Source: a virus
Lineage: Duplodnaviria > Heunggongvirae > Uroviricota > Caudoviricetes
Direction: 5' to 3' (one strand)
Virus record (IMG/VR): IMGVR_UViG_2636415959_000005
DNA length: 40,716 bases
In this document: positions 568 through 39,386 of the stretch, one piece after another
Position numbering within the stretch: position 1 is the stretch's first letter
Layout of the letters: the number at the start of each line of letters is the position of its first letter
Translations under genes and position numbers: made by a program
The notes under the pieces: model-generated
What the model saw: only the letters and a program-made list of their open reading frames with translations
The model's database searches: none
What the model was told of the DNA's origin: nothing

Positions 568-582
568 TTAGTATAAAAAAGC
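568..582. repeat. attR core (15-bp lambda att common core, reverse orientation: ttagtataaaaaagc)
   Basis: Reverse complement is GCTTTTTTATACTAA; flanked on the left by host B' arm (cgctcaag) and on the right by lambda-like P-arm sequence. Confidence 0.9.
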
Positions 583-740
583 TGAACGCGAAACATTAAA
601 AAACATTAATATCAATGTGTTACAATATCTTTAGTCTAAAAAATAGACTACATGATGCTACAAAACACAACATATCCAGTCACTATGAATCAACTACTTA
701 GATAGTATTAGTGACCTGAGACAGAGCATTAGCGCAAGGT
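583..740. other. lambda attP P-arm region (arm-type Int/IHF/Xis binding region of attR)
   Basis: Sequence recalls the lambda P arm (…cagtcactatgaatcaactacttagatagtattagtgacctg…); recognised from memory, not aligned. Confidence 0.65.
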
Positions 741-778
741 GATTTTTGTCCTCTTGCGCTAATTTTTTGTCAACGCAC
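741..778 (+). terminator. sib/tI-like hairpin with T-tract (retroregulation element for int, separated from int in the prophage state)
   Basis: Stem gcgcaag…cttgcgc followed by taattttttg; sits in the P arm on the strand of int transcription, as in lambda. Confidence 0.5.
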
Positions 779-1022
779 TGGGTTAGTTGAATTTACAACC
801 ATGCTCAGTATCTCGATAAGCGCAGAGAAATGATGCAGTGGTGGGCGGACTGGCTTGATGAAAAGGTAGAGTGAGCGACCTTAAACTATCGAATAGAACA
901 AAGTCTTGCAATCCAGTGCAAAGCTTTGTGTGTCTCCGTTTTGTTTCATCAGTTACACATAACTATATGATCATTAGCTAAAAGTCAGTATACTTGGAGA
1001 AATTTTAATTGCGTAATAGAGC

Positions 1023-2195
1023 ATGCATATGATTGAAATTAACAGTTTATTATTAATAACATCCGTGATATTGATGTCGTTATTAGCTGTGGGGTTATTT
1101 GATAAAATTTCCCCAATAAATCTTGTTGAGCACGGCAGGAATAATCAAATAGATGGAATGCGGGGGTTCTTAGCAATTTTCGTGCTTATTCATCACGCAG
1201 CAATTTGGAATGGATACTTGTCATCTGGAGTATGGGAAGCACCTTCATCAAATCTGTTAGCAAATTTAGGCCAAGTTGGTGTGTCATTCTTTTTTATGAT
1301 TACTGGTTATCTGTTCTTTTCAAAGATTATCTCTGGAGATCAGGACTGGACAAGGCTTTATGTATCAAGATTACTACGATTAACCCCAATGTTCATAGTT
1401 AGCCTATGTCTCATTTTTATCATTGTAGGTTTTAAGTCTGGATGGAGAATGCAGGTATCCACAGAAGAGCTTTTTGTGTCAATAATGAAGTGGTTGCCAT
1501 TCACTGCGCTAGGTATGCCGAACATTAATGACGTAAAAGATTCATTTACTATCAATGCCGCTGTAACATGGACACTTGTATATGAATGGTTCTTTTATTT
1601 TTCTCTTCCGGTAATTTCCGCGCTCATAAAAAGAAAAGTCAGTATTTACATGGTTATGATTAGCGCAATATCGCTATTTGTTTTCATTTTATTTTTCAGT
1701 AAAATACACATAGTATCATTTCTTTTTGGGCTCCTGGCATTTTTGCTAAATAAATCAAAGATAGTCAATGGAATTGCCAAAGCAAAAGTAACACCAATCA
1801 TAATAACTGCGATAATGATTTTTGAAATGACGTATTTCAAAACAACTTACGCACCGCTACCACTGATTCTTTGTGGAATAACATTTATCATTATCGCATC
1901 AGGTTGTGATTTGTATGGAATATTAAGATTAAATATAACCAGAAAGCTAGGAGAAACTACCTACAGCGTTTACCTTCTGCATGGGATATTCCTTTATTGC
2001 CTAATGACGTGGATTATTCCTAATAATTACACTGAAAATACATTTATCATACTGGTAAGCACAACTGCATTTCTTATTACGTTCACATCATGCCTAACTT
2101 TTAAATTAATAGAGACGCCATTCATCAAATTAACAAAACAAACCACAACTTTAGTAAAAGAATTAATACCCACATTAACAAACAACAATCAATAA
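1023..2195 (+). CDS. oac: O-antigen acetyltransferase, acyltransferase-3 family integral membrane protein (serotype-conversion moron)
   Basis: 390-aa polytopic hydrophobic ORF with the N-terminal motif (…NQIDGMRGFLAIFVLIHH…) typical of this family; visibly AT-rich. Exact start (1023 or 1029) uncertain. Confidence 0.75.
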   Translation: MHMIEINSLLLITSVILMSLLAVGLFDKISPINLVEHGRNNQIDGMRGFLAIFVLIHHAAIWNGYLSSGVWEAPSSNLLANLGQVGVSFFFMITGYLFFSKIISGDQDWTRLYVSRLLRLTPMFIVSLCLIFIIVGFKSGWRMQVSTEELFVSIMKWLPFTALGMPNINDVKDSFTINAAVTWTLVYEWFFYFSLPVISALIKRKVSIYMVMISAISLFVFILFFSKIHIVSFLFGLLAFLLNKSKIVNGIAKAKVTPIIITAIMIFEMTYFKTTYAPLPLILCGITFIIIASGCDLYGILRLNITRKLGETTYSVYLLHGIFLYCLMTWIIPNNYTENTFIILVSTTAFLITFTSCLTFKLIETPFIKLTKQTTTLVKELIPTLTNNNQ

Positions 2196-2208
2196 ACAAT
2201 AAACATAA

Positions 2209-2240
2209 GCCGCCCTACATATATGTCCCAATAGGGCGGC
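2209..2240. terminator. Bidirectional hairpin between convergent oac and tailspike genes
   Basis: Inverted repeat gccgcccta…tagggcggc with a 14-nt loop; T/A-rich flanks on both sides. Confidence 0.5.
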
Positions 2241-2248
2241 GAATGTAT

Positions 2249-37724: not shown

Positions 37725-37824
37725 CCTGCAACTTGCCGTCAAAGGTGAATAACAATCCTCGAACTCGCGGGGATTTCTTTTATCTGAACTCGCTACGGCG
37801 AGTTTTGTTTTATGGAGATGATAA

Positions 37825-37992
37825 ATGCACTTCCGAGTCACAGGTGAATGGAATGGAGAACCATTCAACAGAGTTATCGAAGCAGAGGACATCAACGACT
37901 GCTATAACCACTGGATGATATGGGCGCAGATAGCGCATGCAGACGTAACCAATATTCGAATTGAAGAACTGAAAGAACACCAAGCCGCCTGA
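37825..37992 (+). CDS. Hypothetical small protein (55 aa)
   Basis: MHFRVTGEWNGEPFNRVIEAEDINDCYNHWMIWAQIAHADVTNIRIEELKEHQAA; ggag RBS; stop sits inside the terminator hairpin. Confidence 0.45.
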   Translation: MHFRVTGEWNGEPFNRVIEAEDINDCYNHWMIWAQIAHADVTNIRIEELKEHQAA

Positions 37993-38004
37993 TGGCGGTT
38001 TTTT
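37984..38004 (+). terminator. Rho-independent terminator upstream of xis
   Basis: gccgcc-tgat-ggcgg followed by tttttt. Confidence 0.7.
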
Positions 38005-38031
38005 CTTGCGTGTAATTGCGGAGACTTTGCG

Positions 38032-38250
38032 ATGTACTTGACACTTCAGGAGTGGAACGCTCGCCAGCGACGCCCAAGAAGCCTTGAAACAGTTCGTCGA
38101 TGGGTGCGCGAATGCAGGATATTCCCTCCTCCGGTTAAGGATGGAAGAGAGTATTTGTTCCACGAATCAGCGGTAAAGGTTGACTTAAATCGACCAGTAA
38201 CAGGTAGCCTTTTGAAGAGGATCAGAAATGGGAAGAAGGCGAAGTCATGA
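38032..38250 (+). CDS. xis: Excisionase Xis (lambda)
   Basis: 72 aa; matches lambda Xis (MYLTLQEWNARQRRPRSLETVRRWVRECRIFPPPVKDGREYLFHESAVKVDLNRP…). Confidence 0.95.
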   Translation: MYLTLQEWNARQRRPRSLETVRRWVRECRIFPPPVKDGREYLFHESAVKVDLNRPVTGSLLKRIRNGKKAKS

Positions 38251-39298
38251 GCGCCGGGATTTACCCCCTAACCTTTATATAAGAAACAATGGATATTACT
38301 GCTACAGGGACCCAAGGACGGGTAAAGAGTTCGGATTAGGCAGAGACAGGAGGATAGCAATTACTGAAGCTATACAGGCCAACATTGAGTTATTCTCAGG
38401 ACACAAACACAAGCCTCTGACAGCAAGAATCAACAGTGATAATTCCGTTACGTTACATTCATGGCTTGATCGCTACGAAAAAATCCTGGCCAGCAGAGGA
38501 ATCAAGCAGAAGACACTCATAAATTACATGAGCAAAATTAAAGCAATAAGGAGGGGTCTGCCTGATGCTCCACTTGAAGACATCACCACAAAAGAAATTG
38601 CGGCAATGCTCAATGGATACATAGACGAGGGCAAGGCGGCATCAGCCAAGTTAATCAGATCAACACTGAGCGATGCATTCCGAGAGGCAATAGCTGAAGG
38701 CCATATAACAACAAACCCGGTCGCTGCCACTCGCGCAGCAAAATCAGAGGTAAGGAGATCAAGACTTACAGCTGACGAATACCTGAAAATTTATCAAGCA
38801 GCAGAATCATCACCATGTTGGCTCAGACTTGCAATGGAACTGGCTGTTGTTACCGGGCAACGAGTTGGTGATTTATGCGAAATGAAGTGGTCTGATATCG
38901 TAGATGGCTATCTTTATGTCGAGCAAAGCAAAACAGGCGTAAAAATTGCCATACCTACAACATTGCATGTTGATGCTCTCGGGATATCAATGAAGGAAAC
39001 ACTTGATAAATGCAAAGAGATTCTTGGCGGAGAAACCATAATTGCATCTACTCGTCGTGAACCGCTTTCATCCGGCACAGTATCAAGGTATTTTATGCGC
39101 GCACGAAAAGCATCAGGTCTTTCCTTCGAAGGGGATCCGCCTACCTTTCACGAGTTGCGCAGTTTGTCTGCAAGACTCTATGAGAAGCAGATAAGCGATA
39201 AGTTTGCTCAACATCTTCTCGGGCATAAGTCGGACACCATGGCATCACAGTATCGTGATGACAGAGGCAGGGAGTGGGACAAAATTGAAATCAAATAA
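38228..39298 (+). CDS. int: Integrase Int (lambda tyrosine recombinase)
   Basis: 356 aa; matches lambda Int over its length as I recall it; overlaps the xis 3' end as in lambda. Confidence 0.97.
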   Translation: MGRRRSHERRDLPPNLYIRNNGYYCYRDPRTGKEFGLGRDRRIAITEAIQANIELFSGHKHKPLTARINSDNSVTLHSWLDRYEKILASRGIKQKTLINYMSKIKAIRRGLPDAPLEDITTKEIAAMLNGYIDEGKAASAKLIRSTLSDAFREAIAEGHITTNPVAATRAAKSEVRRSRLTADEYLKIYQAAESSPCWLRLAMELAVVTGQRVGDLCEMKWSDIVDGYLYVEQSKTGVKIAIPTTLHVDALGISMKETLDKCKEILGGETIIASTRREPLSSGTVSRYFMRARKASGLSFEGDPPTFHELRSLSARLYEKQISDKFAQHLLGHKSDTMASQYRDDRGREWDKIEIK

Positions 39299-39371
39299 TG
39301 ATTTTATTTTGACTGATAGTGACCTGTTCGTTGCAACAAATTGATAAGCAATGCTTTTTTATAAGGCCTAC
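39299..39371. other. lambda attP P'-arm (arm-type Int and IHF sites) of attL
   Basis: Sequence between the int stop and the core resembles the lambda P' arm (…attttattttgactgatagtgacctgttcgttgcaacaaattgataagcaatgcttttttataa…). Confidence 0.85.
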
Positions 39372-39386
39372 TTAGTATAAAAAAGC
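39372..39386. repeat. attL core (15-bp lambda att common core, reverse orientation)
   Basis: ttagtataaaaaagc, identical to the copy at 568..582; followed by host B arm (aggcttc). Confidence 0.9.

Follow-up and report, generated by a model that had tools for sequence, protein, structure and literature searches.

P22 is itself a lambdoid phage, and mosaicism of lambda-like and P22-like modules is a defining property of the lambdoid phages. Two described phages are central to the comparison made here: Sf101 (NC_027398 / KJ832078), a serotype-converting P22-like phage carrying oacB, and JEP4 (MT740315), a deposited phage of the P22-like group whose integration module is of the lambda type. OacB of Sf101 was shown by nuclear magnetic resonance to transfer 3/4-O-acetyl groups onto rhamnose III of the Shigella flexneri O-antigen, and earlier locations of oacB are upstream of adrA and, in Sf101, at sbcB (PMC4159516). 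The stretch analysed (the window; IMG/VR record IMGVR_UViG_2636415959_000005, 40,716 nucleotides (nt)) contains a prophage of 38.8 kb bracketed by att cores and corresponds to positions 740190-780905 of contig JPKI01000003.1 (1.24 Mb) of Escherichia coli G3/10 (DSM 16443), which is among the six strains making up the probiotic Symbioflor 2 (PMC4358396). The element is very probably an apparently intact temperate P22-like lambdoid phage (Lederbergvirus-type podovirus), integrated at att-lambda of this strain and carrying oacB beside its attR end.

The exact 570-amino-acid (aa) tailspike and 214-aa early protein of the element are both encoded on JPKI01000003.1, and the stretches retrieved from this contig are 100% identical to window positions 1-13961 and 27080-40716, with exact spacing (record coordinates 740190 and 767269, difference 27,079). 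An identical 8.5-kb piece (32214-40716, across attL) was found in an independent Logan assembly (SRR12376429). Collinearity with one contig at exact spacing, together with the Logan assembly, makes an assembly chimera very unlikely. Such an artefact would have joined lambda-like and P22-like prophages of one draft genome via shared lambdoid sequence, and it is true that the source assembly is of the 454/Illumina era and was closed by polymerase chain reaction (PMC4358396) and that long near-identical stretches are common to lambdoid prophages. However, both ends of the window lie in the expected host genes, and each module joint also occurs in other phages or genomes (JEP4, Sf101, LT838196.1 and, for the joint of the att region with an integrase gene remnant described below, hundreds of E. 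coli chromosomes). OacB, the tailspike and a Tad2-family (DUF2829) protein of the element are also each on record on a contig of 4,953,189 bp, and may share one complete chromosome. Misassembly is, on this evidence, scarcely credible.

The ends of the prophage are defined by TTAGTATAAAAAAGC, the 15-bp att core and the reverse complement of the lambda common core GCTTTTTTATACTAA, which occurs exactly twice in the window (568-582 and 39372-39386; none expected by chance). The flanks carry ybhB and ybhC (Table 1), the ybhC-side flank being 100% identical to many E. coli chromosomes, and judged by these sequences the insertion point is the classical lambda attB in the ybhB-ybhC intergenic region. 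In lambda orientation, the right junction reads CCTGCTTTTTTATACTAAGTAGG (B-O-C'), followed by the P' arm and int, and is therefore attL; the left junction reads GTTCAGCTTTTTTATACTAACTTGAGCG (P arm-C-O-B') and is therefore attR. A lambda match (blastn, 97.7% identity) covers 37749-39386, including orf55, xis, int and the P' arm, which is identical to that of lambda from 11 bp past the core as far as int, with identical P'1-3 sites. A second lambda match crosses the P arm (564-772), which is closer to HK97 (97.6% identity) than to lambda (87%), with the P1 and P2 sites and the sib/tI hairpin kept. The duplicated core at attB, the lambda-family Int and Xis (99.2% and 98.6% protein identity to lambda) and arm sites in both arms together make up a lambda-type integration system. 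A sequence-only reading of the window had already placed identical 15-bp cores at both ends, with lambda int/xis and lambda P and P' arms between them, and all of this is confirmed except for the P arm, which is of the HK97 type.

Thirteen of 13 P22-type virion genes (small and large terminase, portal, scaffold, coat, gp4, gp10, gp26, gp14, gp7, gp20, gp16 and tailspike) are present in canonical order on the minus strand (2249-18222), and each can be aligned over its whole length with a homologue in Sf101, Sf6, JEP4 or P22. This is the gene set of a P22-like (Lederbergvirus-type) virion, and the Pfam families recognised in the module (P22_CoatProtein, P22_Tail-4, Phage_stabilise, Phage_tail_NK, P22_gp7, Inj_translocase, Phage_P22_gp16 and Head_binding) belong with it. 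Head and packaging proteins have 97-100% identity over their full length to those of Sf101 and JEP4. Coat, scaffold, portal, gp4 and gp10 are of the Sf101/JEP4 type (97-99%), the needle, gp14, gp7 and gp16 homologues are of the Sf6 type (97-99.6%), and the gp20 homologue is itself mosaic, with an N-terminal half 89% identical to Sf6 across 253 residues. The tailspike has 88% protein identity to that of Sf101 over its full length and is its orthologue; the exact 570-aa form is on record on two contigs only. A mechanically called tailspike open reading frame (ORF) of 586 aa was rejected, the true start lying 16 codons downstream and an exact-protein match existing only with the 570-aa form.

Protein identity to both Sf6 and Sf101 is 100% for the small terminase and 99% for the large one (99.6% over 453 of 471 residues when compared to Sf6). 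The 12-nt lambda cos sequence is absent from the window even when one mismatch is allowed, and the lambda Nu1-J region (lambda 1-27500) gave no blastn or tblastn match there, so that the cos site, Nu1/A terminase and head and tail genes characteristic of Lambdavirus are all missing. Headful (pac) packaging, which would yield circularly permuted, terminally redundant DNA, is the mode suggested by a small terminase identical to that of Sf6, a large terminase ~99% identical and the lack of cos. The sequence-only reading, which described P22/Sf6-like structural genes with no cos site and no lambda A-J set, holds in these respects.

Between the lambda/HK97-type P arm with sib and oacB lies a fossil 3' end of an Sf6-type integrase gene (791-874), in which 26 of 26 residues agree with the Sf6 Int C-terminus. 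This scar recurs in JEP4, and a shorter one is present in Sf101. The remnant marks the P22/Sf6-type backbone as recipient of the att/int module, rather than the reverse, and this backbone took in a lambda/HK97-type att-int-xis module by a crossover inside the old int gene. A 201-bp probe spanning the joint between this int remnant and the lambda-type P arm (matches covering at least 80% of the probe length) detected it in 746 of 5,426 complete E. coli genomes (~14%), and in the top E. coli matches to a wider probe the joint was accompanied by a tailspike gene with a P22-type head-binding domain. Prophages of the P22-like kind are therefore common at att-lambda, and with JEP4 showing the same combination the rarity implied by the sequence-only reading is not upheld.

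The remnant also bears on whether the element might be an unusual inter-family hybrid, a Lambdavirus derivative that recently gained a podovirus virion module. Roughly a third of its right half has 97% identity to lambda, which would fit such an origin. However, the lambda-like parts are short cassettes (Q-S-R, rexAB and int-xis) that circulate among P22-like phages: S and R are also in Sf101, Sf6 and JEP4, the same Q is in Sf101, and the same int-xis is in JEP4. Lambda rexAB sequence is also carried by phages 434 and SfI. With the scar pointing to a P22/Sf6-type recipient, and with its joint so widespread, a Lambdavirus origin is highly improbable.

oacB encodes an acyltransferase-3 O-antigen O-acetyltransferase with 100% protein identity to Sf101 gp16, and the gene has two synonymous nt differences from that of Sf101. 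It lies between attR (568) and the tailspike gene (2249-3961), the layout of the serotype-converting phages Sf6 and Sf101, and the element adds att-lambda of a commensal E. coli to the known chromosomal locations of oacB. Its G+C content is 35%, compared to ~50% in the phage, and in the comparison with Sf101 it has 99.8% nt identity vs 92% for the adjoining tailspike region; conservation so far above that of its neighbour is as would be expected of a mobile conversion gene. At position 486 of the gene there is G, as in S. flexneri 301, not the A of Sf101. The exact OacB protein is on record on 35 contigs, named from E. coli and Shigella, while megablast against the 5,426 complete E. coli genomes gave no match extending over the oacB part of the query. 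A scan for promoter and terminator consensus sequences around oacB and the tailspike gene performed no better than on shuffled sequence, and no oacB promoter is claimed. Identity of the 390-aa acyltransferase with oac1b was considered and rejected, as oac1b is a 1,002-bp gene in another, defective prophage at torT-ymcA (PMC3630932). oacB was not among the genes named in the sequence-only reading.

Gene order (int-xis-early left-N-cI-cro-cII-O-P-nin-Q-lysis-virion), with N/nut and Q/qut antitermination, is that of a lambdoid phage. The cro/OR/cI DNA is 99.6% identical to the mEpX1/VT1-Sakai type, and the cI protein is only 48% identical to lambda cI; the immunity type is that of VT1-Sakai/mEpX1, not lambda. 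cI retains the Ala-Gly, Ser and Lys required for RecA-stimulated self-cleavage, and both OR and OL contain repeated ACACA-N3-TGTGA dyads. In the assembly collection, 3,379 blocks are indexed for this exact cI protein. A tRNA-Ala(CGC) called by ARAGORN (27679-27761, plus strand) lies within the cI frame, has no Rfam support and is almost certainly spurious; with gathering thresholds, Rfam found no match anywhere in the window. Both nut sites are in the expected places and orientations (nutR downstream of cro, nutL upstream of N), and the first 84 codons of N come from the same mEpX1-type block as nutL and nutR, so that N matches its sites. A 98-aa ORF downstream of N (30565-30861, plus strand) has a precomputed Pfam match to Phage_N_antitermin; a local Pfam scan gave none, and there is no obvious arginine-rich motif.

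rexA and rexB are paired and co-oriented just downstream of cI, as expected of a Rex system, and were the only matches when ten accessory proteins were searched with PADLOC. The lambda match here (28102-29568, 99.25%) includes rexA, rexB and just the last 27 bp of cI. Overlap of the cassette with the mEpX1-type flanks amounts to 58 bp on the left and 39 bp on the right, where it includes the terminator after rexB, and such shared boundary sequences can allow exchange of the cassette by homologous recombination. Ten other genomes with the exact same cI (loci L008-L017, ~10650-12100) have different cargo in the slot downstream of cI: RexA/RexB (L008), a pair of 93- and 183-aa proteins (L009, L011, L016 and L017), a 340-aa protein (L010), a BstA_C protein (L012), three small ORFs (L013), a 348-aa protein (L014), and an SDH-type protease with a 56-aa protein (L015). 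For several of these cargo proteins no family is assigned, and they might represent exclusion systems not yet recognised. A cI-rexAB-O-P block is also found in LT838196.1 (96% identity), and given this block and the presence of lambda rexAB sequence in 434 and SfI, the cI-rexAB combination is not new.

A further lambda match (19799-22116, corresponding to lambda 46210-43885; 95%) includes Q, pR'/6S, orf64, S, R and the start of Rz. Base-by-base alignment of the pR'/qut/6S/tR' region revealed two substitutions vs lambda. The sequence-only reading assigned S, R, Rz, Q, pR'/6S, cIII, kil and rexAB to lambda. Proteins of S, R, Q and rexAB are indeed 98.1-100% identical to lambda, but Rz is lambda-like in its 5' part only (58.6% overall), and cIII and kil are hybrids, with lambda sequence (32740-32930, 93.7%) in parts of each. 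Replication genes are of the HK97/P22 type with a DnaB-like helicase, and recombination genes of the Sf6 type (Rad52/Erf-like annealing protein, SSB and Abc2) rather than lambda Red.

Table 1 Features of the window (E. coli G3/10 prophage at att-lambda and flanking host genes); identities are at the protein level.
Feature	Position	Strand	Remarks
ybhB	1-477		left flank
attR core	568-582	.	context C-O-B'
P arm	583-772	-	arm-type Int sites P1/P2 and sib/tI hairpin
Fossil 3' end of Sf6-type integrase gene	791-874	+	27 codons plus stop
oacB	1023-2195	+	acyltransferase-3 O-antigen O-acetyltransferase, 390 aa; Pfam Acyl_transf_3
Tailspike	2249-3961	-	570 aa; P22-type head-binding domain (Pfam Head_binding) and Sf101-type receptor-binding part
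Mnt/Arc-family repressor	4050-4343	+	immI-region remnant without ant gene; 99% to Sf101 gp14; Pfam Arc and Repressor_Mnt
gp16-like	4433-6430	-	ejection gene
gp20-like	6430-7818	-	ejection gene
gp7-like	7828-8520	-	ejection gene
gp14-like	8523-8981	-	ejection gene
gp26-like	8978-9826	-	tail needle
gp10-like	9826-11244	-
gp4-like	11254-11715	-
Coat	11926-13179	-
Scaffold	13198-14091	-
Portal	14182-16380	-
Large terminase	16382-17797	-
Small terminase	17794-18222	-
Late-operon accessory gene	18967-19488	-	173 aa; C-terminal Tad2/AcrIIA7-family (DUF2829) domain
Rz	19567-20043	-	88.6% to JEP4, 58.6% to lambda
Rz1 lipoprotein	within 19608-19823	-	embedded in Rz; intact, lipobox VAGC
Endolysin R	20040-20516	-	98.1% to lambda
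Holin S	20500-20823	-	99.1% to lambda
Late promoter pR', qut, 6S leader RNA, terminator tR'	21219-21448	-
Q late antiterminator	21492-22115	-	207 aa; 99.5% to lambda Q
nin region	22112-24309	-	NinH, RusA, YbcO-like, phrog_3973, NinF, NinX, NinE, NinB
DnaB-type helicase P	24365-25741	-	99% to HK97, full length
O	25738-26559	-	99% to HK97, full length
gp53-like	26546-26707	-	99% to HK97, full length
cII	26740-27036	-	99% to HK97, full length
nutR boxA	27135-27145	-	CGCTCTTTAAC; boxB hairpin directly downstream; whole site ~27100-27145
cro	27154-27372	-
OR operators	27373-27480
cI	27481-28128	+	S24 autocleavage domain
rexA	28241-29080	+	99.3% to lambda; PADLOC RexA E = 7.5e-110
rexB	29096-29530	+	100% to lambda; PADLOC RexB E = 8.6e-61
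OL/PL operators	~29750-29835	+
nutL	boxA at 29884	+	with boxB hairpin, upstream of N
N antiterminator	30004-30339	+
Early-left accessory and recombination region	30343-37992	+
KilR-like	31383-31592	+	PHROG 294; precomputed Pfam KilR
Sf6 gp33-like	31663-32664	+
cIII	32689-32835	+	48 aa; hybrid
kil	32828-32941	+	37 aa; hybrid, lambda/JEP4-type
Rad52/Erf-like annealing protein	33135-33842	+
HNH endonuclease	33843-34310	+
SSB	34298-34813	+
Abc2	34827-35123	+
Ea22-like	36246-36884	+
214-aa ORF	37080-37724	+	no assigned function
orf55	37825-37992	+	lambda orf55
xis	38032-38250	+	lambda type; 100% to JEP4, 98.6% to lambda
int	38228-39298	+	lambda type; 100% to JEP4, 99.2% to lambda
P' arm and attL core	39299-39386 (core 39372-39386)	.	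P'1-3 arm sites
ybhC	39433-40716		right flank

About 60 ORFs are full length compared to their homologues, with no insertion sequence (IS) elements, frameshifts or truncations identified among them. The sequence-only reading, a complete-looking mosaic lambdoid prophage at att-lambda with no obvious frameshifts or truncations, is in this respect supported by the att cores, the flanks and the full-length genes alike. By analogy with lambda, P22 and Sf6, CI in the lysogen would repress PL and PR. rexAB would be read through from the cI transcript, excluding other phages by abortive infection, and oacB and mnt would also be expressed; acetylation of the O-antigen by OacB would then alter the receptor recognised by the phage's own tailspike. 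The prophage may be inducible: on DNA damage (SOS) CI would cleave itself, N would antiterminate at nutL and nutR, and Int and Xis would recombine attL and attR to release a circle of 38,804 bp, replicated by O and the P helicase. Q would modify RNA polymerase at qut and allow it to read past tR' into the lysis and virion genes, with headful packaging presumably initiated at a pac site by the small terminase identical to that of Sf6, and lysis brought about by S, R, Rz and Rz1. The predicted progeny are short-tailed podoviruses, with a tailspike likely to bind and cleave an O-antigen related to that of S. flexneri.

Several points weigh against an active phage of this kind. The C' core-type Int site of attL (within 39357-39371) reads GTAGGCC, vs GTTGGCA in lambda and HK97, and these two substitutions beside the core, just inside the prophage, could slow excision. 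Intact ORFs leave room for missense defects, phage activity being predicted, and no induction, excision or particle data for G3/10 were found in the literature searched. Nor was the O-serotype or O-antigen structure of G3/10 found there; this O-antigen may lack the rhamnose acceptor for OacB, and OacB function in the host is likewise a prediction. A paper on tailspikes and E. coli O-serogroups makes no mention of Sf101-type spikes. The two C' substitutions, the lack of published phage release by G3/10 in the literature searched, and the rarity of the exact tailspike (two contigs only, no sign of recent spread) would also fit a cryptic prophage, in which intact-looking ORFs give neither excision nor infective particles, due to missense changes, altered sites or host incompatibility, and which persists only for rexAB, oacB and the Tad2-like gene. 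However, all ~60 ORFs are full length and 90-100% identical to genes of viable phages, no IS elements or deletions interrupt them and both att sites are complete. In addition, Int and Xis are identical to those of JEP4, which has one of the two C' changes as well. A cryptic state is thus unlikely, though by no means far-fetched, and an apparently intact temperate P22-like phage is the preferred interpretation.

The late-operon gene at 18967-19488, in the variable slot after Rz, was also not among the genes listed in the sequence-only reading. It matches Pfam PF11195 (E = 2e-25), and its C-terminal 100 residues match PDB chains of Tad2, ModTad2 and AcrIIA7 (9eib, 8v3e, 8kbi, 8sme; E = 1e-13 to 1e-16), making it a candidate counter-defence gene. 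The N-terminal ~73 aa form an additional domain to which no function is assigned. Identical copies of the whole protein are recorded on 90 contigs, named from several Enterobacteriaceae. In the early-left operon, two different putative cell-division inhibitor genes are present, a KilR-family ORF and kil. The HNH gene is inserted exactly between the annealing gene and ssb, which in another locus (L020) abut with no insert; this suggests a homing endonuclease.

Overall, this prophage is an unremarkable representative of a well-known, abundant kind. The combination of lambda att and P22 virion is already present in JEP4, and the element adds no new biology. It nevertheless provides a clean, fully mapped case of lambdoid mosaicism, with traced segments, overlaps at the rexAB boundaries and an int-gene scar of a module swap. 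An intact-looking prophage in a marketed probiotic strain bears on product safety and stability. A defence cassette (rexAB) is paired in one prophage with a candidate counter-defence gene (Tad2/AcrIIA7 family). The less common feature is oacB, known from Shigella serotype conversion and now found in a commensal E. coli at a new site. A stronger proposal, that a marketed probiotic E. coli harbours an active phage with this S. flexneri conversion gene at a third chromosomal site (att-lambda), is speculative and rather doubtful in full. If true, Shigella O-antigen modification genes would have a living reservoir and shuttle in commensal E. coli, and the phage could acetylate the O-antigen of the probiotic and lysogenise S. 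flexneri via its Sf101-type tailspike.

Comparison with described phages places Sf101 as the best single match to the left half of the element (71% covered, 95% nt identity). Terminase, portal, scaffold, coat, gp4, gp10 and Mnt (97-100% aa identity), as well as Q, S, R and the order tailspike-oacB-att, are as in Sf101. However, the integrase of Sf101 is a different one and inserts the phage in sbcB (PMC4159516); Sf101 also has a different immunity region, a toprim primase-helicase replication module and no rexAB, and differs in its needle gene and in its gp16 virion homologue (2.7 kb, vs the Sf6-type gene in the window). JEP4 has identical Int and Xis proteins, the same att core and type of P arm, and the same joint with an Sf6-int remnant (568-949, 90%). 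Its portal-to-gp10 genes (95% nt identity), DnaB-type helicase, nin genes, Rz/Rz1 and kil are also like those of the window, but it has a P22-type terminase, another tailspike, a full immI region with antirepressor genes and different cI and Q, and lacks oacB and rexAB. Sf6 (NC_005344) shares the Rad52/Erf-like annealing protein (99%), the gp16-, gp7- and gp14-like and needle proteins (97-99.6%), and the layout in which a conversion acetyltransferase lies beside att. Unlike the element, it uses its own IntS-type integrase at argW, and has a different acetyltransferase (oac, 333 aa), divergent coat, scaffold and portal, phage-21-type Q, late tRNAs and different immunity.

Shared with lambda (NC_001416) are the core, P' arm, Int, Xis, Q, pR', qut, 6S, tR', S, R, rexA, rexB, NinB and parts of cIII and kil, while the P arm, O, P, cII, RusA and NinH resemble HK97 (97-99%). 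Compared to lambda, the window lacks cos, Nu1-J, lambda cI/cro/N, Red/Gam, lambda-type P, bor and lom. The cro, OR, cI and PL-nutL sequences and the first 84 codons of N match VT1-Sakai/mEpX1 (97-99.6% nt identity), but in that group the slot after cI is filled by other genes and the virion modules are of siphovirus or Stx-phage type. When mapped against seven reference phages (6.1 of 38.8 kb unmatched by those seven), the element resolves into at least ~40 segments, each 90-100% identical to a different phage and meeting at short shared boundary sequences. Best matches to the right half in the phage collection are HZ41 (44% covered) and HK97 (42%), and coverage of either half reaches 80% neither in any record of that collection nor in any of the 5,426 complete E. 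coli chromosomes. Collinearity of the whole element with one described phage, which would have counted against the sequence-only reading, was thus not found. The exact assortment is unique in the collections searched, as is usual for lambdoid prophages, and every module is known.

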